Shown here: piece after piece, positions 26,416-63,396 of the stretch
Layout: each line of letters starts with the position of its first letter
Position numbering within the stretch: the stretch's first letter is position 1
Assembly: GCA_964016885.1 (NCBI GenBank)
Contig: OZ024740.1
Span: 334,118,001-334,182,000, forward strand
Direction of reading: 5' to 3'
DNA length: 64,000 bases
Source: Eledone cirrhosa
Lineage: Eukaryota
Notes under the pieces: generated by a model
Seen by the model: only the letters and a program-made list of their open reading frames with translations
Databases searched by the model: none
What the model was told of the DNA's origin: nothing
Translations under genes and position numbers: made by a program

Positions 26416-26494
<79 letters not shown>
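26416..26494 (+). repeat. (AAT)n microsatellite, retrotransposon target
   Basis: Pure AAT run directly abutting a Dong/R4-like copy. Confidence 0.97.
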
Positions 26495-29450
26495 CCTCGA
26501 TAAGAGTGTTTAAATGTCGAACCTAAACAGTTCGAATAACGGTGAAATGGAGACTAGAACATCATGTGACAGACTCTCACCCAACAGGTGCTCCCTGGCT
26601 CAGCAGCAGGGACCTGGCTGTCAACCAAATACTGCTGGTGTCGGAGGAAGAAGAAGAAGGAAAGGGACCAGAACCAACTGGACGAAAGAATTGAATAGAA
26701 CTGTTATGCAATGTTACCTGAAAAGTAACCCCAAGGAGAGGGGCTATAGGAAACGGATGCATAACATCTGGAACGAGATTGGTCTATTTAAATTAGATGA
26801 ACAAAAATTGGCCGGGCAGGCTCGGCTAATAAGAACTAATGGGTGGATAAGCGAGCTGGAACTGGAGGAACTGAGCAGAGAGATTAGCTTGGAGATGGAG
26901 GGTGGAGTATGCCAGGCAGACGAGCCAGTGGGAAATGAAGGTGAAGTGGTCGAGAGAACGGAGGAATCACCCGAAGCAGACAATGATCTGAATACTGAGA
27001 TAAATAATACCTGGAACAGAGATACGGCCACTGAGGAGATGAATGCTGACGTGCTAGGACAAGATTTGGTTGACATCCTAAATTTAGTGGTAGATGAATT
27101 GAACAATGATAGTGGGAGACCTATGAACCTAAGATTTGTAGACAGGAAAAAGTTAAAAGAAACAACAGCTAAGGTAAACAAAGTCATCCCATACCTTGAG
27201 GCGAGGAGCCTTCACCAGTGCAACAATATCTTCAAAGCAACAGCAAATACGGTGAGGAAACTACTTGGTATAAAAGCGAGAGGAAACAACAGACAAGAAA
27301 GAGCAGAGCCTTAGTGGAAGAAACGACTGAGTGGTCAAATCAGGTAAATGAGAAATGACATTGAAAAGCTTGAGTCCCTACTGAATGGGACACTAAAAAA
27401 CATAGACACTAAAAATAGACTGGAAATAAAGTACAAAACTAGGAGGAAAAAGCTAAATATTATCATAGAGGAACTGAAGCAACGCATTGTAGCAAAGAGT
27501 GCAAAAATCAGGCGATACGAGAACAGAGTCAGTCAGTATAAACAGTCACGTGGTACAAAGGACCAGTTACTTATTGATAAGATGGTAATGGGGAATTGCA
27601 GGAGGAGACACACTGATCTTGCCATGGGATGGATAGACTACAGAAAGGCATTTGACATGGTGCCTCATTCTTGGTTCACCAAAAGCCTGGAGATCTTCAA
27701 GGTGGCAGATAACATCAGACACTTGTTGGGCAAAAGTATGAGGTCCTGGGAAACAGAGTTGACATCAACTGGAGAATCCTTGGGAAGCGTGAAGATCAAG
27801 AGAGGTATCTTCCAGGAAGATATCCTGTCCCCTCTGTTGTTTGTCCTTGCCCTGATGCCTCTGACCAGTGTACTGCGAAAAGTGAGAGCAGGATACAGGT
27901 TGGGAAAGGGAGGGCTTACCATCAATCACCTCCTCTTCATGGATGATCTTAAGCTCTTCGGGAAGAGTGAGAAGGAGTTGGATGTGCTTGTTGACACTCC
28001 GTATTTTCAGCAGTGATATATGTATGCAATTTGGTATTAGTAAGTGTGGATTCATTGTGATGAGGAGGGGTAGGTTGAGCAGCAGTAACCGAATCCAGAT
28101 ACCAACAGGTGAGATGATAAAGGAAATTGACTGTGAGGAAGGATACAAGTATTTGGGCGTTCTGGAGGCTGATGGCATAAAGAACAAAAAAATGAAGGAA
28201 TTGTTAAGAACTGAATACATTCGGAGAGTAAGGAGCGTATTGAAGTCACATCTGAACAGCAGAAATGCCATAAGTGCAGTAAATTCCCGAGCAGTGTCTA
28301 TTATTAGGTACAGTGCGGGAATTCTGAGATGGAATGTTGCTGAACAAAAAGAAATGAATAGGAAGACTAGGAAGCTATTGACTATCTACAACATGTTCCA
28401 CAAGAGGAGTGATGTCGATAGACACTACTTAAGGAGATCTGAGGGTGGAAGAGGTCTTATCAGCATAGAGGACTGTGTTCAGATGGAACAAAACAACCTA
28501 CACAAATACGTGACTGATAGTAAGGAGCCAATGCTCAGAACTGTACTGAATGAGAGGACAATAGACCAGGGGATGTCCAAGGAGGAAATAACATCAAGGA
28601 GAAATAGCAGCCTTCAGGAAAAATCCCTTCATAGTAACTTCTTTGAGAAAACTGAATTTAGAGATCCACAGACATGGAACTGGTTGAGAAGAGGAGACCT
28701 TAAAAAGGCTACAGAAGGAATGTTAATGGCTGCGCAGGAGCAGGCCCTCAAAACGAAGTGGTTGAAACACCATATTTACAAGGAGGAGGCTAGCCCACTG
28801 TGCAGGATCTGTGGAGAGAGAGAGGAGACTGTGGCTTACATTGTATCCGAGTGTAAACACCTAGCTCAGACCCACTATAAGGGCTGGAGACATGATGTGA
28901 TGGGCAGGGTGATCCACTGGCACCTGTGCAAAGTAAACAATTTACCACATTCTGAGAAATGGTATATGAGCATAAGCCAGAGGCGGTGATAGAGAACGAT
29001 CAGGTGAAGGTGCTGTGGGATTTTAGGATACAGACGGACAAGAAACTGGAACACAATAGACCTGACATGGTGGTTGTGGACAAAGAAAGAAGATCGTGCC
29101 TGATTGTGGATGCGGCCTGCCCATTCGACACGAGAGTGCAAGAAAAGGAGATGGAGAAAATTAACCGATACCAGGACTTAAAGTGGGAGGTAAAAAGGAT
29201 TTGGAACTGCCATGAAGTCAAAGTGATCCCGATTGTCATAGGCGCACTGGGGACTATCTCCAAAAGTTTCCAGGGATGGTTATAGAAAATTGTCCCCTTC
29301 ACGCTTCTTGGAACGCTTCAGAAGGAATGCTTGCTGGGAACAGCAAGAACCCTCCGATACGTCCTGAATATCTGAGGCTGCAGGTAGTGGCTTGATATTC
29401 ATTCCAACACACTTTCCAATTAACTAACATCAATGTCTGAAACTCAAGGC
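26495..29450 (+). mobile_element. Dong/R4-like RLE non-LTR retrotransposon, family A copy 1 (internal deletion, stops, frameshifts)
   Basis: WTKELNRTVMQCY N-terminus, [15 protein letters not shown], CRICx7HIVSEC, RHD, RPD...D, KINRYQDL; (AAT)n on both sides. Confidence 0.93.
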
Positions 29451-29458
29451 GTAATATC

Positions 29459-29520
<62 letters not shown>

Positions 29521-29759
29521 TTTCTTTATTAACCACAAGGGTTTACATAAAGTAGACATTAAGGACAGTGCAGGACAATACAGGATGGTACAAATGAGCA
29601 TTTCTGCGTGTAAAAAACAAAAACAGAGGATGTAACAAAAAATAACAATGAAAAATTCCCCAATAGGGGGGAGACTTCGGAGGGATATTTGTGGAGAAAG
29701 CCCAGTAAAAGGCCACAATGACCCTGACCACCAAGGCAAGTGCCCTCTCCCAGTTTTCC

Positions 29760-32700
29760 ACCTTTAATTTACAGATATATACTCAGAGTAGGCCCATTCA
29801 CTCGGGCCATTCTTGCTTCTCTCACCCATCTTTCGACAAAATGCTTGGAAGAGAGCACTTCCCTCTCTACTCTGATTTCCTTTTCAAATGAAATTTGAAA
29901 AAGTCAATCAGAGTATCACCGAAGAGGTAAGTGCTCGTCTTCAGCCCTTTCAAACGTGTCCACCATACTATCTCTTTCGCCATGGCCACCAGACAGATAA
30001 AAACTGCCTGCCATTCCCGGCTAAAGGAGGAGGGCGGTGCAATCCTCACGATGGACTCAGATGATAGCTGGATCCGTCCTAAACGCGATAGCAGGTGTTC
30101 GACATAAACCCACAAGTCAGCAATTTTCGGACACTGAACGAGTGCGTGCAGGACGGTTTCGTCGCCCTGGGCGCATCTCGGACATGCCCGGCTGACGCCA
30201 CCTCCATGCCTGTAGAGTTTATCCCGAACTGGCAAGGTTCCTCGGTAGCACTGCCAGGCCAGAGATTTCTGGAAGTTGTCCATAGGCCCTGGCCCGAAAG
30301 TTCTTCCGAAGAGATTGGCTAGTTGATTTTCGTCGACGCTCTTCCCCTCCACTAATCCTCTATAGAACGCCGAGGTGGAGTTTCCACCGATCACATTGCC
30401 CGATTGGTCGAGGGCTGTGAGCGCCTGAAGACATTCCAGTCTCCAGGCGCTCCCTCTAGGTCTTCGTTTGACCCAGGACTGCAGCTCCGTCAAGCAAACA
30501 AGCTGGGGAAATACGTGTCTAGCAAACGGCGACCACACCTGATCACCGTCGAGGAAGAGGTGGAGATGTCGTAGCCTGAGCGCGTGCCTGCGCATCATCA
30601 GCCACGGCATGCCCAGCCATCCACGTAGCGGGTGTTGACAACAGATGGACCGCCTGACCATCGGAGCTCGTCACTTCCACAAAAAGCGAAAGAGCAAACG
30701 CTCCAGCGCAGTCAGGCGAGGCTTAGGACAAGGTACGACGGTCAGGCGGTAATAGATGACAGACGCGATGTACGCGTTAGCCACCTCCGCTCGACCTTTC
30801 AGGGATAGCTTCCTCTCCGCCCATTTCTGGGTGAGAGAAGTCACCCTGCTCGTCACCTCGTCCCAGTTTTTGTCCGTCTGGGGGTCCGGACCGACCCAGA
30901 CCCCTAGCAATTTAACCGGTCCGCCGTCCAGCGTCCGACGACGCTGTTGGACGGCATGGACCTGCCTCTCCAGGTGCCGAGCTGCAGGCCCACTGACTTT
31001 TCCTGGTTGATCATTGCTCCTGTCACCGCTTCGTATTCTCTTAGTGTAGTGCCGATCGCCTCCATGTGTTTGGCGTTCGACATCACTTCGGTGACATCGT
31101 CCGCATATGCTGACACGGATCTTCCGCATCATAGTTCGCGCGGGACGCCCCTCAACGTCTCCAGTTTGTGCAGTAATGGCTCAAGAGTCAATACGTACAA
31201 GAGCGACGAGAGGGGACATCCTTGGCGGACCGAGCGCATGATGTTGAACTGTTCCGACAGGTGTCCGTTCAATCTCACCACAGAGCAGATGTCGCTGTGC
31301 ATGGCAGCGATCCAGTCTCTGAAGACGGGCCCAAAGCCAGCCGCCCTCAGGACTGCCGCTAGGTAACGATGGTCGACCCTATCGAAAGCTTTCGACTGAT
31401 CTAAATTGATCAAGGACCCACCCGTGCCAGGTTCCCTAGCTACCGTCTCTACGATGTATCGCATGAGGTGGAGGTTGTCGTGGATGGATCTGTCGGGAAT
31501 GGCGCATGTCTGCGCCTCTCCCACCAGACCACCAACGACAAGCGCCAACCTCTTTGCTAGCACCTTGGCCAAAATCTTGAACTCTGTGTTTAGCAGAGTT
31601 ATGGGCCGGAAATTATCTATGTTATTCCCCTTGTTCGGATCCTTTCTCAGCAGTGCCACCGCTCCTCGGCTCACAGAACTGGGAATTCTCCCGTTCTGTT
31701 GCCAGTTGCAGTAGACGTCCGCCAAGAGGCCTCCGAACAAGTCTGGCATCTGTACGTAAAGTTCATAGGGCAGACGATACAAACCAGGCGATTTACCCCT
31801 TGTGCAGCCAGTCATTGCCTCCCTTACTTCAGCGGCTGTTATCGGCTTTTCGCAACCCTTCGCCTCAGTGGCCGAGAGCCGCGGCAGTCCGTGGAGATAG
31901 ACACTAAAGTCCATCCCTCGACCCGGCCCACCGCTGCCCCCGAACAGCTGAGCGAAGTGTTGCTGAAAAGCTTCACACATTTGCCCGGGATCGAGTAGCA
32001 TGCGCCCGTCGTGGTCCACCAAAGACCGGATCGTGGCTTTGTTGCCACGACGCGCCTCCGCCACTCGGGCCCATTGAACGGCTTTCGTCCCCTCGTGTCT
32101 GAGAGCACGCACACTTGCTCTGACAACGCAGCCTTCGTGCTTTGCATTGAAGAATTGGTCAAGGGCCAATTTCGCCGCAAGCACGTCGGTCGCAATGCCT
32201 TTGCTAAGCGCCTCGTCTAATTTTCTAACTAGTTCTCCCTCTGCTCTATTTTTCTCTATTGCTAAAGCCTTACTAAACCTAATGGATTCTATTCTAATCG
32301 CTCTTTTCAGAGCAAACCACCACTTGTTGTTGACGATGGCCCTCGTCAACGCCTGCTCAACTAGTTCGCTAATCCGGTCTCTGTAGGCCTTGCGCGCTGG
32401 TAAGGACGCGTTTAGCTTCGAGTAGCCGGGTCCTCGTCTATGAAGCCTATCTAAGTCAAGCACACAGATCACGAATTTGTGGTCCGTGTAGCTGACTATT
32501 TTGAATTGTGGACAGCCTATGCTAGACATATCTATTTCCCTACAAAATAATCTATCTAGATATGATCTGGATGACCCTATACGATTTGTCCAAGTCTACA
32601 TTGGCACATTCGGGAAATCCAATCGGTACCTGTCAGACAGTTCAAAACGCCTGAGCAGGTTGGTGAGGCTCTTGCACCCTCCACCCCTATCCGCTAATCC

Positions 32701-33159
32701 CACACAGTCCCAGCGTGCATCTAAGATCCCGTTCCAGTCGCCCACTAACACTAAAGAGCAGGACGTTCCAAGAAACGTATCCAGACGCCGGAAGAAATCA
32801 GGCCGCCCTGCTCCTGTCGGGCCATAGACGGCCACTAGCCTGAAAGCTTGCCCGTCTCCGCTGGTCACGTCCAGCACCACCAGCTTACCCTCTGGGTCCA
32901 GGAAGATGGCCCGTATGGCGAGATCCAAACCTCTCCGAAAAAGCACAGCAACTCCGCCCCCCGATCCCGGACGGCTGGGAGATGCGTACACATCGTAGCC
33001 GCCGAAGATCGGTGCGAAGGCCCGTGCTTCGGAGATTCTGGTCTCGCTGATGGCCACTACATCTATGTTTAGTGACCTGAGGTCCTTGAGCAGGCCACCC
33101 TGCTTCCATGACGACCCCAAGCCACGCGCATTTATGCTGCCTATTCTGAGTGAGGTCAT
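29760..33159 (-). pseudogene. T1 ORF2: apurinic endonuclease, reverse transcriptase, C-terminal zinc finger
   Basis: IGSINARGL, SET, GDWN, YTDH; KSPG, FRPITLLN, LDQSKAFDRV, QGCPLS, YADD; CPRC...H...C; split over five ORFs. Confidence 0.92.
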
Positions 33160-33193
33160 GTTTAAAATAGAGTGGAAAAGATGGGAAGACCAC

Positions 33194-35337
33194 TTACCGT
33201 ACTTTTCGTAGAGGAGGGATTGTTTTTACATCCCTTTTCACTTGATCGTCTGGTGAAGGCACCGTTGAATCGTCCCTTCGGCTGGTCGTCGGATCTTCTA
33301 TGAGTATGTCCGAATATACTCTTCGATTGATAGTTCCTCCTAGGTCCCTGAAATCACCAACTGCGTTGGGGAATTTCGTTTTAATGTTTGTGTATTGTTT
33401 CTGTGCTATTTTTAGCAGTCTTATGTTAGTTGGCGTTTTGATTGGTGCTGGTATTATGTAGTCGTGTTGTGAAATGTCTGTGTGTTCAATTATGTAAGTC
33501 ATTAGTTTCTTGTTGTGTGTATTTATTGCCGTGCATTCGTTATTCTGGGGGTGGGGTGTGGTTCTGCTATTTTCTTGTCGTTGTTGCTGGGTGTGTGTGT
33601 TTTGTTGTTGTGTTTGCGATGTTGGTGCTTGTGGTGGTGGTGTTGAAGGTGTTGTTGGCAGTGGGGTTGTCGCCGGTGGTGATGGTGGTGCTAGTGTGGG
33701 TGGTGATGGTCTTGGTGGTCTTGCTGCTGTGAGTCTCTTTGCAGTAGACTTTACCCTTTTCTCATTTCTTTCCTCCCTTTTCAAAGGCGACGATGCGCTG
33801 CTTCTGCGTTTGTACCTTCTTACGACCTTTTGCCATCCCTCTCCCACCTCACACTCCATATCTGATTCTGGAAGGTCGGGGAGGGGTACCAGCTCCACTC
33901 TTTCACTTGTTGTTGTTGGTGTGTTTGCACTGGAGTCTCTGTTGCAGCTGCATTTGGTATTGCTGTTGTTGTTGTTAATATTTCCACTGCTGCTGCTGTT
34001 TTTGATTTCCGTGGCGTGGGTATGGGTGCCACAGACCTATCGTTCCTGGTTGCCGCTTGCCCTGTTGCAGGTAGCCGTGGAGCCGGTTTTGGAAGGAGGG
34101 GGGTTTTCTCCTTTCTCAGGGTCTTCTCGTTGCAGAAGGCCCTGAGGTGAGTCCTCGATCCACAGCGAAAGCATTTCGGGCGTTTGCCCTCAACACTTAT
34201 GGGCAGTTGAGTGCCGTTATCGAAGTCTATCACATCCGGGATAGCTTCGATGTACTCCTGATTGGTTTGGATTAACATCTCAATGGAGGTGCTGACCCAA
34301 TCTTCTCTTACTTTTTTCTGTACTTGCAGTACAGTTGTTTTGTCCTCGATTCCGACGAGGACAGACGCGGCCAGCCAAGAAGGGGCCATCCCGGGGGGGG
34401 GGGGGGCGTGGGTTAGTTTGACCCTCACAATTTTTTGCCCGCAGTAGGAGGGCACCAACACCATTTCCTCGCTCCTTAGGGTCACTACGGATTGAGCCTT
34501 TGCCTCCTGAGGTGTGGCAAAAAGTACGTCTACGGTGGCATATTTTTTGCCTCGGGTGATGTGCGTTTTCCGCTGCCACACAGACCCCAAGGCTTTTTGT
34601 ATTTGAGCCTCTGTGGCTCTTTCAACCCTACGAGATTTTGTACTTACTGTACGGTACGTGACCGTACAGTGCTGTTGGGTTTCGAAAAAATTTTCCGCTG
34701 CCTTGCAGATTGCTCGCTGTCAAGTCTTTGTCACCATCTTCTTCGCTTCCTCTAATTCCTCATTTGTTATGAGGATTGTTTCCAGGTTCTTCGCGATACC
34801 TGCAAACGAGATTGGTTTTTCTTTGCTGCTGTTGTTGTTGTTGTCGTCAGAGCTGCTGTTACTTTTGTTGTTGCTGCAGGTACTACGACTACTGCCTCCG
34901 CCGCTGTTGCTGTGGTTGTTATTGGTGTTGCTGCTGCTAATGCTGTTGTTGTTTATGCTGCTGGTAATGCTGTTGCGGCTGCTACTGTTGTTTTCATTGT
35001 CCCTGTTGCTGTTGTTATTACAGCTGCTACTGCTATTATTCCTGACGTCAGACGAATGAAATGGGTTTTCGTATTTCATGCACACCCGTTTCGTCGTTGT
35101 CGTCGTCGTCGTGGAGAAATCTTGCACGCTTTGCACGAGACGTTTCTTTTCTGTCGTCGCTTGCGAAAGAGAAGGGAGGGAGAGAGACACATTTAAAGAA
35201 GGGAGGGAGAGAGACAATCTTCTCTCTGCTGTAGTGATAATTGAGGAAGAAGAAGACGGAATGAGTGGGAGTGACCTACGAAAATTCTTTTTCGTAGCCA
35301 TGTTGTTTTTTTTGTTTAAAATAAATATTGGGCACAA
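33194..35337 (-). pseudogene. T1 ORF1: gag-like protein with CCHC knuckle, frameshifted
   Basis: ORFs 35337-34720, 34590-33820 (CFRCGSRTHLRAFC), 33898-33194; SFAGIAK and WQKV motifs; N/S- and P/T-rich linkers. Confidence 0.82.
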
Positions 35338-35540
35338 AACCCCAATAAGCAGTTATTTAACCCCGAAGGGCCAAATAACGGGCAGAAAGAACCCTCTCAC
35401 GAGGAGGAGGGTGTTTTTGTCTACAAGTTCGTTAAAGTTTTAAACAATTTACAATTGTTATAGCGTTCAAAATTTACAATACCTTACAGAGCCGAGCCTC
35501 CGTCAACCATAGCATTCAATAATAATAATAATAATAATAA

Positions 35541-37086
35541 GATGCTGTTTGGACAGCTTGAAGAGAAAGAAAGAGGCAACGACTTGATCCCTGCGGCGGA
35601 ACAAACTAGAACATTCTGGAGAGGAATATGGGAGCAGGATGTTAAACATAATGACCAGGCAGTGTGGATTGAGACAGTACAGAAGGAGATTAGTGAACAG
35701 GCACACCAACAAACTGATTTGAGTATCACAGTTGAAACTCTTAAGGGGCAGGCCAAAACACTAACCAACTGGAAATCACCAGGCCCAGATGGTGTGCAGG
35801 GGTATTGGATTAAAAATATAACATCCCTCCACCCGAAACTGACAACCATGTTCAATGACTGCTTGATGTCAGGTGAGGTACCAGAGTGGTTGACAAAAGG
35901 TACCACAGTTCTGATAATGAAAGACCGAATCAAGGGTAAGGATGTTACCAAATATAGACCTATCACATGTCTGTCCGTAATGTAGAAACTGTTGACAAGC
36001 ATTATGTCTTAGGAAATCTACCATCACCTCCACACAAACAACCTGTTACCGGACGAACAGAAATGATGCCGAAAGAAGTCACGTGGTACAAAGGACCAGT
36101 TACTTATTGATAAGATGGTAATGAGGAGAAAAACAACCTACACAAATTCGTGACTGGTAGTAAGGAGCCAATGCTCAGAACTGTACTGAAGGTCGGGACA
36201 ATAGACCAGGGGATGTCCAAGGAGGAAATAACAACAAGGAGAAAGAGCAGCCTTCAGGAAAAATCCCTTCATAGTAACTTCTTTGAGAAAATTGAATTCA
36301 GAGATCCACAGACATGGAACTGGTTGAAAAGAGGAGACCTTAAAAAGGCTACAGAAGGAATGCTAATGGCTGCTCAAGAGCAGGCCCTCAAAACGAAGTG
36401 GTTGAAACACCATATCTGCAAGGAGGAGGCTAGCCCACTGTGCAGGATCTGTGGAGAGAGAGAGGAGACTGTGGCTCACATTGTATCCGAGTGTAAACAC
36501 CTAGCCCAGACCCACTATAAGGGCTGGAGACATGATGTGATGGGCAGGGTGATCCACTGGCACCTGTGCAAAGTAAACAATTTACCACATTCTGAGAAGG
36601 GGTATGAGCATAAGCCACAGTCGGTGATAGAAAACGATCAGGTGAAGGTGCTGTGGAATTTTAGGATACAGACGGACAAGAAACTGGACCACAATAGACC
36701 TGACCTGGTGGTTGTGAACAAAGAAAAAAGATCGTGCCTGATTGTGGATGTGGCCTGCCCATTCGACACAAGAGTGCAAGAGAAGGAGAGGGAGAAAATT
36801 AACCGATACCAGGATTTAAAGTGGGAGGTAAAAAGGATTTGGAACTGCCATGAAGTCAAAGTGGTCCCGATTGTCATAGGCGCACTAGGTACTATCTCAA
36901 AAAGTTTCCAGGGATGGTTAAAGAAAATTGGCCCTTCACGCTTTTTGGAACGCTTCAAAAGGCAAGATTGCTGGGAACAGCAAGAACCCTCCGATACGTC
37001 CTGAATATCTGAGGCTGCAGGTAGTGGCTTGATATTCATTTCAACAAACTTTCCAGTTAACTAACATGAATGACTGAGACTCAAAG
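35541..37086 (+). mobile_element. Dong/R4-like family A copy 2, 5'-truncated, ~0.9-kb internal deletion
   Basis: Starts after (AAT)n 35518-35540; KSPGPDG, then jumps near 36127 to the C-terminal region; same 3' UTR and AAT tail. Confidence 0.92.
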
Positions 37087-37119
37087 AACAATAATAATAG
37101 TAATAATAATAATAATAAT

Positions 37120-39925: not shown

Positions 39926-39929
39926 AAAC

Positions 39930-51507: not shown

Positions 51508-51760
51508 AATTGGCAGTATCGGTAGAGGGTTGGACGCCATGCTTTCTAACATAGTTACGTCCCTTTACGGTCTGAGTTCAAATCCCGCCAAGGTTAACTT
51601 TGCCTTTCATCCTTACGGGGTCAATAAAATAAAGTACCAGTAAAGTACTCGATCATTGCTGGCCTTGTGCCTAATGTAGAAACAATTATTATTATTATTA
51701 TTATACCAGTAATGCACTGGGTAATTGCTGGCCTTGTGCCAAAAAGTAGAAACAAATAGT
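51508..51760 (+). mobile_element. tRNA-derived SINE with (ATT)n tail and duplicated 3' end
   Basis: A-box TGGCAGTATCGG, B-box GTTCAAATC, shared core, tail at ~51685-51704. Confidence 0.87.
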
Positions 51761-51778
51761 ATTGTTATTTGACATTAC

Positions 51779-51967
51779 TGGATTGGCAGTATAAGTAGAG
51801 GGTCGGACGCCATGCTTTGCAGCAAAGAGTTACCGCCCTTTATGGTCTGCTTTCAAATCCCGCCGAGGTTAACTTTGCCTTTCATTCTTACGGGGTTGAT
51901 AAAATAAAGTCCAGTAATACACTGAGATAATTGTTGGCCTTGTGCCAAAAGTAGAAACAATTATTAT
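51779..51967 (+). mobile_element. tRNA-derived SINE
   Basis: Homologous to the other three copies. Confidence 0.85.
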
Positions 51968-52571
51968 TTGACATCGTTTAACCTAAACATTTTTAGAGAG
52001 TTTAGAGATACAACAACAATAATTATTATGGTGTTTCCGTTTGCTGTTTGACCGGGTCACTAAATCAGTCTATTTATATCTTTTGGTGACTTCCTCGTTT
52101 CCTAATCATGTGTAGTGGCACTACTAACTTCCCTCTCTTAACATGAAGTAGTGAGGGAATAGTGGTGGTAGCAATGATGCAGTAGTGACGGTAGTGATGG
52201 AATAGTGGTACTGTAGTGATGGTGTTGTTGCTGCTGTTGGTTTGTATCTAGCTAAATTTGTTGTGGTAGAGGTGGTGGTGTCGGATGGGTTTTGTCGTGA
52301 AATTATTTGGCTGTTGTTTTCTTCTATTTGTGACCATTTGTAACCATTTTCTTTTTTGACTATAAAAGACCTATGCCATAGTGTTATAAGTTGTCACTTC
52401 CTGAGAGCTAAGACTGGTGTCTTATGTCACATTTGTAATAAGAATTATTCTATCACAATTGTTTTAAATATGTAAAAATCAAAAACTTACCGGAGCGATT
52501 CCATAACACTCTATCCACCATGTGAGTATTCTTCCCTCATTATATTATTATTATTATTATTATTATTATTT

Positions 52572-52685
52572 TTATTTTCTTTCATTATTGTTTCTGAGAT
52601 ATATGCCGAGTGTCTTCCTGACACCTTGGGCAAATAAATTCACAGTGTGCTTTGGTAAGCCAGTTAATAAGACACATTGATTATA
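52572..52685 (-). mobile_element. Short 3'-terminal fragment of a non-LTR element with AAT tail
   Basis: Near-duplicate of 53556-53660; ends in (AAT)n on the minus strand. Confidence 0.65.
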
Positions 52686-52759
52686 ATTTAAAAAAAACAA
52701 TAAAAAAAACAGTATACATATATACACATGTGCATATGCATATGTAAATACAAGGAGGG

Positions 52760-53545
52760 ATATTCTTTCTTCATCATTCCCAGTCCTCCCACGATCACTG
52801 GTATTGTAACGGCCTTGAGGAGCCACATTTCCTCAATTTCAATAGGAAGATCTTTATATTTTCGTAACTTGTCAAATTCTTTTGCCGTGATATTGTGATT
52901 GCAAGGGATGCTCATATCTATCAATAAACATACCTTGTTATGTTGATCTTTTACAATGAAGCCTTCACCCTTCGCCTTTAGCCCTGAACTACGTAGCCAC
53001 TGATGGGCATGCTTTTGGTCAAAATCAGCTTGTTAGCTACGGGACAAATATTTGCCAGGCAGAGGTTTCTGCTCCCAATTTGATGCTAATTGTCCCTGCC
53101 CTTTTGCTTTTGCCAGTGATTTTATGTGCCTAGCAGCATCACTTGCAACAGTTTCTTTAGTCTGTCCAGTCTGGGTATCAAGCATGAGATCAGTAGCATA
53201 TTTTTTGCTCTCCTTCAAGATAGAATGAAGATTTTTACTTCTCTCATGCTTTTCAACAAGTTTCAGCATACAGTGGTTAGTTGTTTCAAGGTATTTGGCC
53301 AGTCCAATGATGGTGGTCTTGTAAGCAAATTCAAATTGTATCAGGCCACGGCCTCATTGAGTTCTAGGCTTTAAAGACGATCCACATCTGCTTTTGAGTG
53401 GTGCATGCTATTACAGGTCAGTAGCTTACGGACTTTGGTGTCGATTCTTTTGATTTCCCTCATATTCCAGTTCAACACACCGAAGCTATAAGTGACAACT
53501 GGGACTGCCAAGGAAATGATGGCTAGCACCTTGTTACGAGCGTTT
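52760..53545 (-). mobile_element. Dong/R4-like family C fragment
   Basis: NARNKVLAIISLAVPVVTYSFG, DVDRL, WLRSSGLK, IDMSIP, KYKDL, VIVGGLG. Confidence 0.85.
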
Positions 53546-53555
53546 ATTATTATTA

Positions 53556-53660
53556 TTGTTTTTTTTCTCCTTACATTATTGTTTCTGAGATATATGCCGA
53601 GAGTTTTCCCGACACCTAGGGCAAATAAATTCACAGCGTTCCAGTTAATACAGCACATTG
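53556..53660 (-). mobile_element. Short 3'-terminal fragment of a non-LTR element between AAT tracts
   Basis: Near-duplicate of 52572-52685; AAT runs on both sides. Confidence 0.65.
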
Positions 53661-53680: not shown

Positions 53681-56600
53681 ACAGTTGCATTTATCTTGCT
53701 TTATGTGCATACGAGTTATCACCAAGTCACAACCAGTGACCTCATGAAACAACAAGGTCCGCCATGTTCAAGAAAGAACATACATACAGACTTATGCATC
53801 TCTAGGTGTTTAGACTGTTGTGATGTACTTATATTGACAGAATCTTCCTTAGTATATGGGCAGTTCCCAATTAGTACTATCTTTTATATTTCTCTTATAC
53901 GCGGATTTCCTGGGATTTGCGATAAGTAATCATTAGACCCCTTAGGTATCATTGCTAGAGCGCCTACAACCACTGGTATTGTTTTAGTTCTCAATTTCCA
54001 CATTTTTCCAATTTCTATCTCCAGGTCCTTATACTTGCTCAATTTTTCAAATGTTTTTATAGATACATTCTTGTCTATTGGAACGGACATATCAATTAGC
54101 AGGCATATCCTTCTTTTAAAGTCCTTCAGTATTATATCAGGTCTATTTGCATCTATTTTTCGGTCTGTTTGGATGCTAAAGATCCACAAGATTAAGATGT
54201 AATATTTTTCAAGTGTGGGAGGTGTTGATTCTCCCACCAATTCTTTTGATGGGGCAGGTCAAAATGCTTACACATTATCCAATGTATTGTACAGCTCTGT
54301 CATGCCTGTTTAGGTATTCGGTTGGAGCTATAGGACTGCACATTGAAATTATATGGTCAATGGTCTCTGGTTGTTTTTTTACATACACGGCATAATGGGT
54401 TGCATCCATTTTTTATTATGTTGGCTTGGAATTTTTTTGTTGGCAGACACTGATCTTGTGCTGATATAATCAGTCCTTCAGTCTCCGATTTCAGTCCAGA
54501 GGATGCCAACCACTGATGGGTTAAAGTTTTGTCAACATCAGGATTGTTAGCTCTTTCTGGGTATTTTCCATACAGAGGCTTTTCTTGCCATTTCTTAGCC
54601 AGTTTCTGTAGCATTTCTTTCTTTGCAGTCACTTTTATCTGCTTTGCTTTTTCTGTGTTTGTCATTTCAGCAGTAAATGGAACTTCTGAAATGTGTAGTT
54701 CATTACTGTATCTTTGTGCATCTTTTGTAATGAAGTATGATCTTTTGATGCTTTGGTGTTTCAAAACGAGTTTGATCATCCAATCATGTGATTCCCTTAG
54801 ATATGTAGATAATCCAATTGTTGCAGTTTTCAACGCAATATCTAACTTTATTAACCCACGTCCTCCTTCTTCCGTAGGGAGATATATTCTATCTATATCT
54901 GCCTGAGGGTGATGCATTCTGTGCCTGGTTAAGAATTTTCTAATTTTTGTATCGAGCCTACGGATCTCTGTGCTTGACCAGTTGATGACATTGTAACTGT
55001 TGGTTACTTCTGGTATGGCAAGCGTGTTTATGGCATCGATCCTATTCCTTGCATTCAATTCCGTTCTTAAGATTGTTCTTACTCTGCGGTAACATTCCTT
55101 CCTTATCATTTCCCTCATTGTCGATTGCTTGATTCAGTCTCCTTCACAAACACATAGATATATCAAGATTAATGTCTGAACTTTTCAGCAGCTTTCCTCT
55201 GGTGAACCTTGCTTTGACGCATTTATCTAGTCCAAACTCCATTTTAATGTCATCACTGAACGGCTCCACATGGATAATAGCCTTTGCAATTGTTCATCAT
55301 TTTTTTGCAAATAGTTTCAGGTCATCCATGTAGAACAAGTGATTAATGGTTTTGTCATAGACTTTACATCCATGTTTTGTTTCATTGAGCATTTTACTTA
55401 ATGGTATAATTGCGATGCAGAATAAAAGCGGTGATAAAGAGTCACCCGGAAAAATTCCACAATTAATATTAACTTCTCCAGCTTCCAGTGATTTTTTTTC
55501 ACTTTTCGAAAGGAGTGTCGTTTTCCATGTCTTCATACTGAATGACAGGAACCTCTTTACAACGGGATATATGTTAAAAATCTCTAAACATTTTTCAATC
55601 CAACTGTGTGGCAAACTATCGAATGCTTTTTTATAATCTATCCAAGCAATTGATAGATGTTTGTATCTATCATGACAATCTTCCAGTATCATTTTGTAAA
55701 CCAAAAGTTCATTCTTGCAGCCATATGAGCCTCGTTTACACCCAGTCTGCTCATTGGAAAATAGATCATTTGTTATCAGGTCGTCATATGTATATTCAGT
55801 TAGGACCGATGTTAAAATTGTATACATTGTGGTGAAGCAAGTTATCTTTCTGCTCAATGGGAAATAGGTCATTTGTTATCAGGTGGTCATATGTGTATTC
55901 AGTTAGGACTGATGTTAAAATTTTATACATTGTGGTCAAGCAAGTTATCCGTCTGTAATTTTTGGTATTGTTTGTCTCATCATTCTTCGGAAGCAGGAAT
56001 GTAATGCCGTTAACTAGCCATGATGGTATATTTTCTGGCTCCTTAACTATTTCATTGTAAAGTTGGGCTAACAGCTCATGAGACTATGTGAAGGCATTTA
56101 TCCAAAAAATTTGTATTTTGTCTTTTCCTGGGGATTTCAACGTGCTGGTTTTTCTAAGAGCCAAACGCAACTGTTCAACTGTTATATTTTCCCATATTTG
56201 TTCCTCAAGGTGAGCTGTATCTTTCATTTGTCTGTCTGTCCATGGGGCATGTATATTATGAACTTTTTCTTCGGCCCAGATCTTTTCCCATAATTCTTGC
56301 ATTTCCTCCTTGTGTGGTATTGATTTAGCAGTTATTGTTGACTTGCCAATTTTTCTGTAGAAGTTTCTTTGTTTGTTTTTGAACATATTATTGTCCTTAT
56401 AGAATCTAGATCGTTTTTCAAAGCGCCTTATACGAGCAGCTTTGGCCGACACTTTTTGCTTCATTTTTTCTATCAGCATGTCTATGTCACTTGTTGATTT
56501 TATACTGTATTTTCATTTCAATTTTCTAAGTTTAGTTTGTTTAACATGGTTCCTACTTTGTAGCTTGTTAACATTTCTATGTCAGATCGGAGAAGTTTTA

Positions 56601-57715
56601 TTTGGCGATTGATGTTCTGTAACCAAGTAGATTTCTTGTGGAAATTCCTTTGTCTTTTCATTTTCACTCCACATAAATGAGTTGTGACTTTAGCCGATGT
56701 ATAATAGAGATGATTTAAATCAGTAATGTTTAGTTTGTTTGTGATGATAATGTTTTTGAGAATTATCTTAGTCTTGTGCATTATCTTTTGGTTCTATTTG
56801 GAGTTCTGGATCTTAGGCAGAGTGTCTCATCCCCCCATGTCAGATTCTTTCATTTTCATCCATTCGATCATAATTTCATCCTTCAAGTTGGCAAGTTCAT
56901 TCTCATTCATTTTTTATCATTTACGATCTCATTGTTTTCATTCTGAGTTTCATCTTGAGCATGCACTGCCTCCACTATTTCGATCCTTTCTTTAATTTGT
57001 TCTGTTGTCAGTGATTCCGCCCCAAGCCCGGGATTCGAAGTGTTACAATTTACCTCGTTTTTACTGACACATGTTTCATTTTCCCTTCGCTGACTTTGTG
57101 CTAATAGCTTGATCTGATCAATTTCTATATCAGTTAGTAACTTTTTTTTTACAATATTTCTTCGTATATTGGCTAGTTTGTTACTGTCAATATAGCCTCT
57201 GTTTTCGGGATGTTTCTTTTGCAGTTGATATATGTTTGTTCTGTATTCGATCTATTTGATGGGTAGTACATGGCAGTGTAGAAAGCCTCAAGGACTTCTT
57301 TATTATCTTCCCTTGACCATGTATCTCTCTTTTTCTTTGGATTTCTTGGTGGTGAGCATGGAGGGTCAACAGTAGGAGTATTCCGGTTATGGGAGGTCTC
57401 CAGCTCCGAAGTGATGGGAAGGTTTGAACCATTAGCTGATATTTCGACCCCAGTCTGGTTCCTCTCTGAGAGACGCGGCCCTTTTCACCCGGGTGACGGC
57501 CGATCCAGTATGAGATTTTATCATTTGACATTTACTTTATTTTGTCGCGTTTTATCCTTAACCAAGGGGTAATCATTTCATGTAAACACTTCTAGGACGA
57601 GTGTCAACCAAGACTAGAGGGGTCGTTCTCCCCTAGAGACACGGCTATTCCCCGCCGGCCGCCATCCCGGTATTTCTTCGTCACGGTGGTTTATCTTTTT
57701 TGTTGTTTTTTAAAT
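53681..57715 (-). mobile_element. Dong/R4-like family B, near full-length, degraded
   Basis: KSPGKD, IDYKKAFD, GDSLSPLLF, HLFYMDD, CRVC, RPD...D, KYKDL in successive ORFs; (AAT)n tail at 53661-53680; local duplication near 55770-55950. Confidence 0.9.
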
Positions 57716-57790
57716 TGTTATTATCATGAGTGGTTCCTTAATGTGAGCATTGCGTGGCTTAAGAATGAAATTATTATTAATAATATATGT

Positions 57791-57989: not shown

Positions 57990-58822
57990 CTTTTTGTTGA
58001 AGTTGCCTGTTATTGTTGTTGGCTATGTAGGTGGTGGTGCTGGGGCTTTTTCTATTGTTGGTGGGGAAGGGGGGAGCCAGCAGTCCACAGTCGATGACGT
58101 TTGACCGGGTCACTAAGTCAGTCTATTTATATCTTTGTTAACCTCTCCCTTGTCTAGTGATACCTCCACCTTCCCCTTTCTTAAGTTAACAGAAGGTAAT
58201 GGGGGAATAGTGGTGGTAGCAATGAAGGAGTGGTTGCGGCAGTGATGGGATAGTGGTAGCAATCATGGAGTGGTGGCGGTGGTGACTATAGTGATGGCGT
58301 TGTCGTTACTGATTTTTGTTGAATAGACTGTAGTGGTATGCGTTTGATTGATATGTGTATCTATGCGGTTTGTCGCGTATGTTGACATATTTTCTTAATA
58401 TTTGAATTAAACATTGAGATACAATTAAACTTGAGATAAAATAATAGTAATTATTATTATTATGCTGGGATTGGTGGTGGTGGTGGTGGTGAAATTGCCG
58501 TTATCTGGCTGTTATATTTAATGTGCACAGAGGGGTGATGGGATAGGTGGTGTATCCAGTTTGTGGTGTTGGTGAAATTGTTGTTATTTGGCTGTTCTAT
58601 ATAGTGTGGTCTGAGGGAGTTTTCTTCCATTTATAACCATTTTCTTTTTTTAATATAAAATGTATAATACAAAATTGAATATTTGAGCGATATAACAGGA
58701 TATTATGGATCCGAATTTCCTGAGATCCAAGTCTGGCGCTTTATGTACTATTTGTACTACGAATTGTTATATGACAATAGTTTTAAATATGTTAAAAATT
58801 AAAAACTTACGGGAGCGATTCC

Positions 58823-58823
<1 letters not shown>
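57990..58823 (-). mobile_element. Orphan family-A-type leader (no family A ORF)
   Basis: (AAT)n-cggaatcgctccc|GTAAGT (donor 58810); one copy of the unit triplicated at 40143-41110; TATAAATAG...TGACCCGGTCA. Confidence 0.8.
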
Positions 58824-58876
<53 letters not shown>

Positions 58877-58879
<3 letters not shown>

Positions 58880-58953
58880 TGTACCATCTTGTATTGTCAT
58901 GTACTGTCCTTAATGTCTAATTTGTGTAAACCCTTGTGGTTAATAAAGAAAGC
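58877..58953 (+). mobile_element. Tx1/L1-like copy T3, terminal ~77 bp only
   Basis: Matches the 3' end of T1/T2 (ccttgtggttAATAAAgaaa); (ATT)n on both sides. Confidence 0.88.
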
Positions 58954-58977
58954 ATTATTATTATTATTATTATTATT

Positions 58978-61900
58978 GTTCTTTGAGTATGTCATTCATG
59001 TTAGTTAACTGGAAAGTTTGTTGAAATGAATATCAAGCCACTACCTGCAGCCTCAGATATTCAGGACATATCGGAGGGTTCTTGCTGTTCCCAGCAAGCA
59101 TGCCTTTTGTAGTGTTCCAAAAAGCGGGGCGCGGCCAATTTTCTTTAACCATCCCTGGAAACTTTTTGAGATAGTACCTAGTGCGGCTATGACAATCGGG
59201 ACCACTTTGACTTCATGGCAGTTCCAAATCCTTTTTACCTCCCACTTTAAGTCCTCTCCTTCTCTTGCACTTTGGTGTCGAATGGGCAGGCCACATCCAC
59301 AATCAGGCACGATCTTTTTTCCTTGTCCAAAAATACCAGGTCAGGCCTATTGTGTTCCAGTTTCTTGTCCGTCTGTATCCTAAAATCCCACAGCACCTTC
59401 ACCTGATTTGTTTTCTATCACCGACTCTGGCTTATGCACATAACACTTCTCAGAATGTGGTAAATTGTTTACTTTGCATAGGTGCCAGTGGATCACCCTG
59501 CCCATCACATCATGTCTCTAGCCTTTATAGTGAGTATGGGCTAGGTATTTACACTCGGATACAATGTGAGCCACAGTCTCCTCTCTCTCTCTCCACAGAT
59601 CCTGCACAGTGGGCTAGCCTCCTCCTTGTAAATATGGTGTTTCAAACCACTTCGTTTTGAGGGCCTGCTCTTGCGCAGCCATTAGCATTCCTACTGTAGC
59701 CGTTTTAAGGTCTCCTCTTTTCAACCAGTTCCATGTCTGTGGATCTCTGAATTCAGTTTTCTCAAAGAAGGTACTATGAAGGGATTTTTCATGAAGGCTG
59801 CGCTTTCTCCTTGTTGCTATTTCCTCCTTGGACATCCCCTGGACTATTGTCCTCTCGTTCAGTACAATTCTGAGCATTGGCTCCTTACTATCAGTCACGT
59901 ATTTGTGTATGTTGTTTTTCTCTATCTGAACACAGTCCTCTATGCTGATAAGACCTCTTCCCCCTTCAGATCTCCTTAAGTAGAGTCTATCGACATCACT
60001 CCTCTTGTGGAACATGTTGTAGATAGTCAATAGCTTCCTAGTCTTCCTATCCATTTATTTTTGTTCAGCAACATTCCATCTCAGAATTCCCGCACTGTAC
60101 CTAATAATAGACACAGCTCGGGAATTTACTGCACTTATGGCATTCCTACTGTTCAGATGTGACTTTAATACGCTCCTTACTCTCCGAATGTATTCAGATC
60201 TTATCAATTCCTTCATTTTTTTGTTCTTGATGTCATCAGCCTCCAGAAAGCCAAAATACATGTATACTTCTTCAGTGTCAATTTCCTTTATCATCTCCTC
60301 TGTTGGTACCTGGATTCCGTTGCTTCTGCTCAATTTACCCCTCTTCATCACAAGCACTCCACACTTACTAATACCAAATTGCATACATATATCATTGCTG
60401 AAAATACGGACAGTGTCAAAGAGCACATCCAACTCCTTCTCACTCTTCCCGAAGAGCTTAAGATCGTCCATGAAGAGGAGGTGATTGATGGTAAGCTCTC
60501 CCTTTCCCAACTTGTATCCTGCTCTCACTTTTCGCAGTACACTGGTCAGGGGCATCAGGGCAAGGACAAACAACAGAGGGGACAGACTATCTCCCTGGAA
60601 GATACCTCTCTTGATCTTCACCCTTCCAAAGGATTCTCCGGCTGGTGTTAACTCTCTTTTCCAGGACTTCATACTTTTGCCCAACAACTGTCTGATGTTA
60701 TCTGCCACCTTGAAGATCTCTAGGCTTTTGGTGATCCAAGAATGAGGCACCATGTCAAATGCCTTTTTGTATTCTATCCATCCCATGGCAAGACCTGTGT
60801 GTCTCCTCTTGCAATTCCTCATTACCATCTTATCAATAAGTAACTGGTCCTTTGTACCACGGGATTTCTTTCGGTATCCTTTCTGTTCATCCGGTAACAA
60901 GTTGTTTGTGTGGAGGTGATGGTAGATTTCCTCAGACATAATGCTTGTTAACAGTTTCCACATTACGGACAGACATGTGATAGGTCTATAGTTGGTAACA
61001 TCATTATCCTTGATTCGGTCTTTCATTACCAGAACTGTGGTACCTTTTGTCAACCAGTCTGGTACCTCACCTGACATCAAGCAGTCATTGAACATGGTTG
61101 TCAGCTTCGGGTGGAGGGATGTTATATTTTTAATCCAATACCCCTGCACACCATCTGGGCCTGGTGATTTCCAGTTGGTTAGTTTTTTGGCCTGCCCCTT
61201 AAGAGTTTCAACTGTGATATTCAAATCAGTTTGTTGGTGTGCCTGTTCACTAATCTCCTTTTTTACTGTCTCAATCCACACTGCCTGGTCATTATGTTTA
61301 ACATCCTGCGCCCATATTCCTCTCCAGAATGTCTTAGTTTGTTTCGCATCAGGGATCTAGTCGTTGCCTCTTTCTTTCTCATCAATCTGTCCAAACAGCA
61401 TCTTCTGGTTGTTGTCAAACATGCGGTTCTGTCTATACTGACTGACTCTGCTCTCGTATCGCCTAATGTTTGCACTCTTTTCTACAATGCGTTGCTTCAG
61501 CTCCTCTATGGTAATATTTCGCTTTTTCCTCCTAGTATTGTACATTATTTCCACTCTATTTTTAGTGTCTATGTTTTTTAGTGTCCCATTCAGTAGGGAC
61601 TCAAGCTTTCCAATGTCATTTCTCACTTCCCTGATTTGACCATTCAGTCTCTTCTTCCACCAAGGTTCTGATCTTTCTTGTTTGTTGTTTCCTCTCGCTT
61701 TTATGGCAAGTAATTTCTTCACCGCATTTGCTGTTGCTTCGAGGATATTGTTGCACTGGTGAAGGCTCCTCGCCTCAAGGTATGGGATGACTTTGTTTAC
61801 CTTAGCTGTTGTTTCTTTTAACTTTTTCCTGTCTACAAATCTTAGGTTCATAGGTTTCCCACTATCATTGTTCAATTCATCTACCACTAAGTTTAGGATG

Positions 61901-63355
61901 TCAACCAAATCTTGTCCTAGTCCGTCAGCATTCATCTCCTCAATGGCCGTATCTTTGTTCCAGGTATTATTTATTTCAGCATTCAGATCATTATCTGCTT
62001 CGGATTCTTCCTCCGTTCTCTCAACCTCTTCACCTTCATTTCCCACTGGCTCGTTTGCCTGGCATACTCCACTCTCCATTTCCAACCTAATCTCTCTGAT
62101 CAGTTCCTCCAGTTCCAGCTCACTTATCCACCCATTAGTTCTTATTACCCGAGCCTGCCCGGCCAATTTTTGTTCATCTAATTTAAATAGGCCAATCTCG
62201 TTCCAGATGTTATGCATCCGTTTCCTATAGCCTTTTTCCTCGGGGTTACTCTTCAGGTAACATTGCATAACAGTTCTATTCAATTCTTTCGTCCAGTTGG
62301 TTCTGGTCCCTTTCCTTCTTCTTCCGACACCAGCAGTATTTTTTGAGACAGCCAGGTCCCTGCTGCTGAGCCAGGGAGCACCTGCTGGGTGAGAGTCTGT
62401 CACAAGACATTCCAGTTTCCACTTCACCGTTATTCGAACTCTTTAGGTTCGACATTTGAACACTCTTATCGAGGATTGGTGAATGTATGGTTACATAACC
62501 ACCGGTGATTTCTTCGCCCCCGATGATTTTAGTATGGCACTATCACGCTGTAGGCGAACATAAATAAACAAACAAACAAATAGGTAAAAAAAAAAAAGAA
62601 TCAGCATAAGTTTCATTGTAATGTAATGTTTGAATGTTTTTTTTTTCCTTCTCTGTCTGTTTATTTTTCTTTTCCTTTTTCTTTTCTTTACGTTTTTCGT
62701 TGTTGTTGTGCGGTTTTGACTTTGATTTTTGTTTTTTTGATTTTTTTGACCGGGTCATCAAATCAGTCTATTTATATCTTTTTATGCTTTCCTCTTTTAG
62801 TGGGGACACTACGAGGCATGTCTTAGCAGGAGGTAGTGGGAGAGAATAGCGGCGGTAGCGATAATGAGGCAGTGGGTGGTGGTGGTGGTGGTGGTGGTGG
62901 TGCTGTGCTAGTAGTACTTAGCAGGAGGTAGTGGGAGAGAATAGCGGCGGTAGCGATAATGAGGGAGTGGTGGTGGTGATCTGATCGTAGTACTGTAGTG
63001 ATGGTGTTAAAGTTGAAATAGAAATAGAAGTTGAGGCAACTTGACCAGAGTTTTTGGCGTGGTAGTGGTGATGGTGGCGGTTGTGGTGTTGGCGGTGATT
63101 TTATTTGCCTGTCTGTCCACTAGCCATTTAGCCATTTTGCCATTTTCCTCTTTTTCGAATATAACATTTCTGATCCAAAATTAAATATTAAATATTGGGG
63201 CCCTATGCCGTAAAGTGATGCGTTATGGCTTGCTGAGCGTAAATAATGCAATCTTATAGAATTATTCTATCACAGTTGTTTTAAATAAGTAAAAATCAAA
63301 AACTTACGGGAGCGATTCCATAACGATATATATCCACCATGTGCGTTTTCTTATC

Positions 63356-63357
<2 letters not shown>
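58978..63357 (-). mobile_element. Dong/R4-like family A copy 7 with leader, full-length, several stops and frameshifts
   Basis: ORFs 62427-61357, 61281-60055, 60054-59614, 59310-59053; AAT tracts at both ends. Confidence 0.92.
62548..63307 (-). other. Putative spliceosomal intron in the leader of copy 7
   Basis: CCC|GTAAGT at 63307; branch-like CTGAT (62604-62600), T12 tract, CCTACAG| ending at 62548. Confidence 0.6.

Positions 63358-63396
<39 letters not shown>

Follow-up and report, generated by a model that had tools for sequence, protein, structure and literature searches.

Elements of the R4 clade known as Dong, described in Bombyx mori and as DongAg and DongBg, target TAA repeats (PMC3812793, PMC1635306), and several Tx1 families are specific for a microsatellite, (TC)n for Kibi, (TTC)n for Koshi and (TTCC)n/(TTTC)n for crocodilian elements (PMC4494074). 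In Bombyx, the TRAS1 and SART1 families share one simple repeat, (TTAGG)n, which they enter in opposite directions; the TRAS1 nick lies between T and A (PMC7265360), and mixed TRAS1/SART1 arrays exist (PMC10088271). Keno (Tx1, with an AP endonuclease, APE) and Utopia (with a restriction-like endonuclease, RLE) provide a precedent for APE and RLE elements at one site, the U2 snRNA genes. TE hotspots have also been reported in octopus, a genome rich in Dong-R4 and L1-Tx1 elements (PMC13282606), where target sites are unmentioned.

The window analysed here is a stretch of 64,000 nucleotides from Eledone cirrhosa (contig OZ024740.1). Positions 26415-63395 are a stack of non-LTR retrotransposons, made of 12 Dong/R4-like pieces from three families with a restriction-like endonuclease (families A, C and D) and three Tx1-like copies with an AP endonuclease (family B). 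An initial annotation of this DNA had described about 37 kb of stacked elements, and elements do cover 36.3 of the 37.0 kb when the SINE copies within one 5′ leader are counted in. The Dong share is 75% and the Tx1 share 8.4 kb (23%) in three copies, the third being a 76-bp 3′ tip. Two stacks of opposite polarity are joined at ~51270; DNA on both sides is non-array, and the AAT repeat is interstitial. The features are the following.

26415..26492, +: (AAT)26 tract at the left boundary
26493..29458, +: A1, Dong/R4-like family A, 5′-truncated, ~560-bp internal deletion near 27545
29459..29518, +: (AAT)20 tract, A1 and B1 tail-to-tail
29519..35517, -: B1, full-length Tx1-like copy; ORF1 (ZCCHC3-like RNA-binding plus CCHC) and ORF2 (APE-RT-zf), with stops and frameshifts
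35518..35538, +: (AAT)7 tract, B1 and A2 head-to-head
35539..37089, +: A2, family A, 5′-truncated, ~890-bp internal deletion at 36127
37090..37119, +: AAT tract of 10 units (one imperfect), A2 and B2 tail-to-tail
37120..39463, -: B2, Tx1-like, 5′-truncated, 93.6% identity to B1
39466..39929, +: A3, 3′ 464 bp of family A, joined head-to-head to B2 without a tract
39930..39974, +: (AAT)15 tract, Dong-Dong head-to-tail
39975..45150, +: A4, family A, full length, with a 325-bp repeat present three times in the 5′ leader
45151..45192, +: AAT tract, Dong-Dong head-to-tail
45193..51270, +: A6 (45193-49095) and A7 (49096-51270), the family A copies with the heaviest decay, 3′ ends missing from both
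51271..52542, -: family A 5′ leader containing SINE copies; its broken end is the orientation flip of the array
52570..53660, -: D1 (52570-53543) and D2 (53556-53660), truncated, a further Dong-like family
52543-52569, 53544-53555 and 53661-53681: tracts around D1 and D2
53682..57775, -: C, third Dong-like family, decayed near-full copy with Myb-like N-terminus and RLE motif
57990..58823, -: piece of 5′-leader type akin to the leaders of family A, lying upstream of C and separated from it by a SINE
58824..58877, +: (TTA)18 tract, leader and B3, second head-to-head junction
58878..58953, +: B3, Tx1-like, 3′ tip of 76 bp, flanked by tracts
58954..58977, +: (ATT)8 tract, B3 and A5 tail-to-tail
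58978..63356, -: A5, full-length family A
63357..63395, +: (TTA)13 tract at the right boundary

Dong-Dong head-to-tail junctions account for five of the 10 internal tracts. Deletions are frequent in the array (A1, A2, A6, A7 and D1).

Family A fits the R4/Dong layout, in which a single ORF encodes RT and, at the C-terminus, CCHC and PD-(D/E)xK endonuclease. The A4 ORF, split over two frames (296 + 854 aa) by one frameshift, carries Myb-like, RT, CCHC and PD-(D/E)xK nuclease regions, and intact relatives are single ORFs of ~1130-1160 aa. The best PDB matches were R2 proteins, nuclease segment included, while no named R4-clade reference stood among the 120 family A matches listed. In the R4/Dong clade, the N-terminus bears a Myb-like domain and has neither zinc fingers nor a protease; in family A, Myb-type matches to the N-terminus reached 0.75-0.85, which is lead level only, the 296 aa gave no Pfam match and no N-terminal CCHH was seen by eye. 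Family C shares 29-44% aa identity with family A. Like family A, Bombyx Dong is an RLE-type single-ORF element with TAA repeats on the sense strand, there in the 5′ junction primer (PMC3774820). Unlike Dong, the array stacks three families together and with Tx1, has a long tandem-repeating 5′ leader and yielded no HDV-like ribozyme: one strict descriptor, run without a positive control, gave 0 matches in six 5′ regions, and an Rfam scan of 24000-64000 returned no ribozyme family, only below-threshold low-complexity matches.

Family B has the two-ORF layout of Tx1, with an RNA-binding, ZCCHC3-like ORF1 containing CCHC and an APE-RT-zinc finger ORF2 (Exo_endo_phos, RVT_1 and zf-RVT domains, L1 endonuclease matches). 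One match was named 'transposon TX1 149 kDa protein' (29% identity), the best ones being unnamed, and a relative at 32% identity is located in U1 snRNA genes. Kibi, Koshi and the crocodilian elements are likewise two-ORF APE elements within microsatellites (PMC4494074), but the target of family B is (ATT)n, common to an RLE clade. According to the same source, Tx1 insertion counts as sequence-specific when more than 20% of flanks are of one type; in family B this holds for five of six ends, from three copies at one locus only. The literature searched yielded no Tx1 that targets (ATT)n. Among Tx1 relatives at 42-43% identity (50 loci, 44 from one record set), an AAT tract stood at the element end in none and a Dong C-terminus nearby in none; these relatives form direct head-to-tail arrays, with a tract in 1/50 loci, ~3 kb from the element end. 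AAT targeting by family B is without outside support because these relatives form arrays without AAT tracts.

A junction table was compiled for all 15 pieces. AAT lies on the sense strand at 17 of 24 Dong-type ends, as expected from the TAA-repeat target of R4/Dong, with ATT at none and seven tractless; Tx1-type ends carry ATT on the sense strand in 5/6 cases and AAT in none, one being tractless. The strand rule noted earlier, (AAT)n for Dong and (ATT)n for Tx1, is therefore followed by every tract-bearing end (17/17 and 5/5), and B3 is reversed along with the flipped block. Altogether 22 of 30 element ends lie exactly on tracts, and tracts of four or more units make up 1.2% of the array. The three tail-to-tail junctions and the head-to-head junction at 35518-35538 lie where the initial annotation had placed them, but the latter is not the only one of its kind: two more had been overlooked, one tract-bearing (58824-58877) and one tractless (39463/39466).

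The four clean Dong-Tx1 tracts contain 20, 7, 10 and 8 whole units, which points to a TpA step shared by both families on opposite strands. These four junctions cannot count as independent of one another, since three Tx1 insertions produced them all, and with three insertions Tx1 strand fixity has a one-sided chance probability of 1/8. Tx1-Tx1 neighbours are absent from the array, which is the chance expectation (P=0.63). A tract forms each of the two intact Tx1 5′ flanks, (ATT)7 at the full-length B1 and (TTA)18 at the 76-bp truncated B3, for which the chance is ~1.6e-4 at the tract share above, indicating that the Tx1-like family inserts into the repeat.

These data make it probable that two unrelated target-specific non-LTR lineages converged on (AAT/ATT)n, inserting independently by target-primed reverse transcription (TPRT). 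On the TPRT model, from which we infer the nicked strand and bond, Dong/R4-like elements (RLE) would prime from the ATT strand, so that their sense strand reads AAT, and Tx1-like elements (APE) from the AAT strand, so that theirs reads ATT, both apparently using the TpA step between repeat units. A tract would be left on both sides of each insertion and remain a target, so stacks would gradually accumulate, chiefly at the outer 5′ tract. If a Tx1 entered a Dong stack, it would necessarily end tail-to-tail on one side and head-to-head on the other. Since the common target and fixed strand force this antiparallel geometry, and an enrichment of Dong-Tx1 pairing looked for within the array was not seen, the special pairing proposed earlier is not upheld. 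Fusion of the two opposite-polarity stacks at ~51270 would have involved deletion or rearrangement; its cause, like growth direction and genome-wide Tx1 sequence specificity, is what we infer from this locus. Private substitutions, counts of which vary with the number of close relatives of a copy in the window, amount to 1.4% at the outer edge and increase towards the flip, where they reach 4.8% (rho 0.94, p=0.008, n=6), supporting array growth by repeated insertion across a roughly threefold age range. The 12 tracts total ~148 units across the two stacks and may stem from long host tracts that were split, together with slippage, and not from regenerated target.

A bolder extension, which we consider unlikely, is that APE and RLE elements divide the strands of one microsatellite between them at a common TpA bond and that one break can serve both, where twin priming by two RNAs would yield tractless head-to-head fusions such as that of B2 and A3; outward-growing, polarised interstitial arrays would then fuse into large inverted repeats, dual-strand sources of small RNA for both families. 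Functional coupling, in which arrays arise or persist as convergent transcription units for mutual antisense RNA, or in which both RNAs prime at one break, appears very doubtful. B2 and A3 are two 5′-truncated copies without a tract between them, the geometry expected of two RNAs primed from both break ends, but a deletion is simpler because deletions are common in the array. Read-through into the antiparallel Tx1 is possible because neither AATAAA nor ATTAAA occurs at the 3′ end of family A (5/5 copies), and self-cleavage of Bombyx Dong at the 5′ junction (PMC3774820) fits read-through transcription. However, both ribozyme searches described above were negative, AATAAA lies 12 nt before the Tx1 end in 3/3 copies, no copy in the array has an unbroken ORF and adjacency of the two families is not enriched there. 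Mutual antisense RNA, as suggested initially, is unsupported because at least one 5′ end is incomplete in every pair: the Dong copy is 5′-truncated in pair 1 (A1-B1), both copies are truncated in pair 2 (A2-B2) and the Tx1 copy of pair 3 (B3-A5) is the 76-bp tip.

It is similarly improbable that the pairs derive from one Dong-Tx1 pair by local duplication followed by gene-conversion scrambling. One unbroken 3373-column alignment (92%) covers pairs 1 and 2, whose A-halves (94.4%) and B-halves (93.6%) diverge similarly, and the 3′ tips of B1 and B2 are identical at 74/76 positions. On the upstream 358-column segment the AU test rejected neither A1+A2 (p=0.22) nor A1+A2+A5 (p=0.17), and A2+A5 survived the test on both segments (p=0.066, 0.085). 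In contrast, the 3′ 481 columns reject A1+A2 (p=0.007) and A1+A2+A5 (p=0.002), and 15 informative sites place A1 with A4 against A2+A5, versus 2 and 2. The pairs draw on different source subfamilies, A1 being closest to A4 and A2 to A5 at both ends (5′ parts agree); truncation points and internal deletions also differ between pairs, and the groupings are discordant, (B1,B2) for B and (A2,A5) for A. Both halves show a synonymous excess (A1-A2 16/42 vs 0.24 neutral, p=0.03; B1-B2 41/106, p=0.02), pN/pS being a modest duplication test and B1-B2 codon-position counts nearly flat in the RT segment. A single duplicated ancestor, which the initial annotation had named, together with a lack of enrichment elsewhere, as what would overturn its reading, is thus rejected on the 3′ segment, the upstream one being uninformative, and the alignments support pairs that are not copies of one ancestor.

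Alternatively, family B might lack target specificity and carry an (ATT)n tail that Dong enters, forcing antiparallel tail-to-tail pairs. Known Dong targeting alone would explain all three tail-to-tail junctions, the window contains a SINE that likewise has ATT repeats at its end and B relatives show no AAT target, but a tail cannot supply the tracts at both intact B 5′ flanks, and we give this account little credence. Passive accumulation in a TE hotspot of low recombination, or misassembly of similar repeats, is highly unlikely: the rest of the window is TE-rich and several junctions are tractless, but the coincidence of ends with such scarce tracts and the unit register kept at junctions speak against both, and copies 5-13% different are too divergent for collapse. 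Two endonuclease types in opposite orientation on one microsatellite, independent pairs and repeated insertion thus stand from the initial interpretation, without its special pairing and antisense RNA.

All components of the convergent-insertion reading have precedents. TRAS1/SART1 resemble the array in having two families in opposite directions on one simple repeat, but both are telomeric R1-clade APE elements, whereas the array combines unrelated endonucleases at an interstitial repeat. A TRAS/SART-type telomeric array was rejected, as the repeat is AAT, the elements are of RLE and Tx1 types and non-array DNA lies on both sides; only the geometry is alike. Keno and Utopia have identical 3′ flanks, hence the same orientation, and their target is a single-site gene, while the repeat here stays usable after insertion. 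The locus probably adds an (ATT)n-specific Tx1 lineage, and it is a natural case of two unrelated endonucleases reading opposite strands of one trinucleotide repeat. Strand choice on a simple repeat, whether by endonuclease, DNA-binding domain or annealing of the RNA 3′ end, becomes directly testable, and a mechanism is offered for TE hotspots where Dong-R4 and L1-Tx1 abound, as in octopus. A SINE-B partnership is not claimed, because similarity between SINE and B 3′ ends is weak (304 of 20000 random windows score equally). Outside the array, the window likewise contains many TEs, among them Penelope-like ORFs and a SINE.

Self-comparison showed that 15 pieces of non-LTR retrotransposons filled 36.3 of the 37.0 kb of the array at 26415-63395, in which the Tx1-like family B (full-length B1, 5′-truncated B2 and B3, a 76-bp 3′ tip) held a 23% share. 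The Dong/R4-like family A was represented by seven coding copies (A1 to A7) and leader pieces with approximately 86-95% identity, and none of the array copies had an unbroken coding region. Its single long ORF comprised a Myb-like N-terminus (a lead-level match only), RT, a CCHC finger and a PD-(D/E)xK end; R2 proteins were its best solved relatives and a second match covered the nuclease. Families C and D presented the same layout at approximately 30-45% amino-acid identity. In family B, ORF1 resembled RNA-binding ZCCHC3-type plus CCHC proteins, ORF2 was of the APE-RT-zinc finger type and one match bore the name Tx1. The Dong/R4 and Tx1 labels, taken from architecture, target and these database matches, are putative. 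The co-occurrence of Dong-like, Tx1-like and Penelope-like elements with SINEs in the window would be consistent with a cephalopod (PMC10294476, PMC8967140, PMC13282606).

The ends followed a strand rule. Read on the sense strand of the element, 17 of 24 Dong-type ends carried AAT, none ATT and 7 no tract, while the six Tx1 ends comprised five with ATT, none with AAT and one without a tract. On the + strand, the six tracts left of ~51270 were AAT and the six to the right were ATT, and all families changed orientation at that point together with the tracts. Since both outer edges of the array were Dong 5′ ends, it consists of two separately started stacks fused at their broken ends; the flip itself (51270-51295) contained no tract and a short palindromic filler, which suggests end-joining of two opposed stacks. 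Dong-Dong head-to-tail contacts occupied 5 of the 10 internal tracts. The four Dong-Tx1 junctions listed in the initial annotation all lay where it had placed them, but it had missed a second head-to-head tract (58824-58877, between a leader and B3) and a tractless head-to-head junction (39463/39466, between B2 and A3).

The tract was present at both intact Tx1 5′ flanks, including that of the 76-bp truncated copy (chance ~1.6e-4 by tract share), indicating that Tx1 inserts into the tract and is not merely ATT-tailed. Its strand fixity came from three insertions only, with a chance of 1/8. A Tx1 entering a Dong stack necessarily acquires one tail-to-tail and one head-to-head end, and the lack of Tx1-Tx1 neighbours among 3 Tx1 in 15 pieces was expected by chance (P=0.63); Dong-Tx1 pairing beyond a shared target is thus unsupported. 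The array is real and well ordered, and independent strand-specific targeting of one microsatellite accounts for it.

We considered whether the tail-to-tail pairs A1-B1, A2-B2 and B3-A5 (pairs 1 to 3) were copied from one ancestor. This less favoured reading, which the initial annotation had raised, accords with the continuous alignment of pairs 1 and 2 at 92%, both halves being about equally diverged. Against it, approximately 940 shared columns held 15 informative sites for A1+A4 versus A2+A5 and 2 for each of the other splits. The 3′ 481 columns gave the tree (A1,A4),(A2,(A3,A5)), on which the AU test rejected constrained A1+A2 (p-AU 0.007) and A1+A2+A5 (0.002) and did not reject A2+A5 (0.066). 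The upstream 358-column segment yielded no resolved tree and rejected nothing (0.22, 0.17 and 0.085, respectively). The 5′ parts of family A again placed A1 near A4 and A2 near A5. Among the Tx1 tips, B1 and B2 were identical at 74/76 bases and B3 differed from them at 6 and 8, a grouping opposite to that of the Dong halves. Synonymous changes were in excess between A1 and A2 (16/42 differences, p=0.03) and between B1 and B2 (41/106, p=0.02), and A1- and A2-private changes were even over codon positions. Altogether, the data favour independent insertion, with the firmest case for pair 1 versus the others.

Target-primed reverse transcription, the established model, was used to assign the priming strand, which would be the ATT strand for Dong and the AAT strand for Tx1. 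In each of the four clean Dong-Tx1 tracts the number of units was whole (20, 7, 10 and 8). The boundary AAT|AAT corresponds to ATT|ATT on the complementary strand, and both families would prime at a TpA step, although added or annealed repeat units could displace the true nick from it; TRAS1 likewise nicks between T and A (PMC7265360). Because AATAAA lay 12 nt before the family B end in 3/3 copies, the B RNA may end within the tract, anneal to the primer strand and thereby fix orientation. An AATAAA-type signal was absent near the family A end in 5/5 copies. Private substitutions increased towards the fusion, where they reached 4.8% against 1.4% at the left edge (rho 0.94, p=0.008, n=6 copies; the A3 value came from 384 sites and the A4 value includes lineage changes), a gradient suggesting that growth took place at the outermost 5′ tract. 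Net target regeneration by insertion is plausible.

Published accounts describe TAA as the Dong target (PMC3812793, PMC1635306, PMC3774820), Tx1 families in microsatellites (PMC4494074), opposite insertion of TRAS1 and SART1 in one repeat (PMC7265360, PMC10088271) and convergence of APE and RLE elements on one site in Keno/Utopia (PMC4640811); PMC5753468 and PMC8869645 contributed nothing further. Neither an ATT-specific Tx1 nor antiparallel Tx1-Dong stacks were found in the literature searched; published Tx1 target lists and Repbase may already hold such a family. The array is a new combination of behaviours all known from print.

Mutual antisense RNA from the Dong-Tx1 pairs, proposed initially, is unsupported: no pair had two intact 5′ ends; one-way read-through out of Dong is possible. 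A stronger candidate dsRNA source would be the Dong-Dong inverted repeat of A4 (+, 41458-45174) and A5 (-, 58954-62637), 3.7 kb, 90% identical and ~14 kb apart, from which hairpin RNA is possible. The junction of the 5′-truncated B2 and A3 (39463-39466) contained 2 nt of filler and showed short microhomologies. Priming of two RNAs from both ends of one break (two-RNA twin priming) would give this geometry; however, deletions are frequent in the array and explain the junction more simply.

The 5′ leaders of the array shared a conserved core near the tract and were otherwise 66-89% alike, in patches, with tandem monomers of 3 x 325 bp and 3 x 79 bp.

Leaders and other repeats in the window
39975-41460, 5′ leader
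45193-45990, 5′ leader
51280-52542, 5′ leader
57990-58823, 5′ leader, family A type, upstream of the distant family C
62620-63356, 5′ leader
15508-15687, SINE-like repeat
51506-51698, SINE-like repeat
51704-51763, SINE-like repeat
51779-51968, SINE-like repeat
57796-57975, SINE-like repeat
5439-7280, 16464-17825 and 19774-21394, Penelope-like RT and GIY-YIG ORF fragments

The leader upstream of family C reflects either leader exchange or a separate element. The A1 5′ truncation (26493) met the tract via AAT microhomology directly upstream of the ORF; the stretch there showed loose conservation across families A and C, may fold and matched no known RNA family.

A contig scan for Tx1 relatives returned 50 outside loci, 44 of them (L001-L043 and L050) from one record set with eukaryote-type Tx1 elements at 42-43% identity and one partial match at 53%. 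Although titled a bacterial MAG, this set held long head-to-tail arrays of Tx1 relatives, many with full-length ORF2, and is probably co-assembled eukaryotic DNA. The arrays in the outside loci read were direct and head-to-tail (period ~6.4-6.8 kb), the Dong C-terminus was found in 0/50 loci and an AAT tract in 1/50, far from an element end; AAT targeting thus sets family B apart from the relatives seen, and it found no outside confirmation. In L045 (32% identity), which lay within U1 snRNA genes (features at 3036-3199 and 9961-10137), the 3′ flank of the relative was a U1 gene lacking its 5′ part and a whole U1 gene lay upstream, pointing to a likely U1-targeting family.

The SINE-like repeat (~180 bp) had a tRNA-like head, by eye, and an ATT-type tail. 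Its four copies within the array were all antiparallel to Dong, as was Tx1, and the copy at 57796 had an ATT-rich target duplication of ~16 bp. The 3′ motif of the repeat was found again close to the 3′ ends of the L001-L043 Tx1 relatives. Finally, one Penelope-like set lay inside a long inverted repeat (18053-20269 / 21442-23567).
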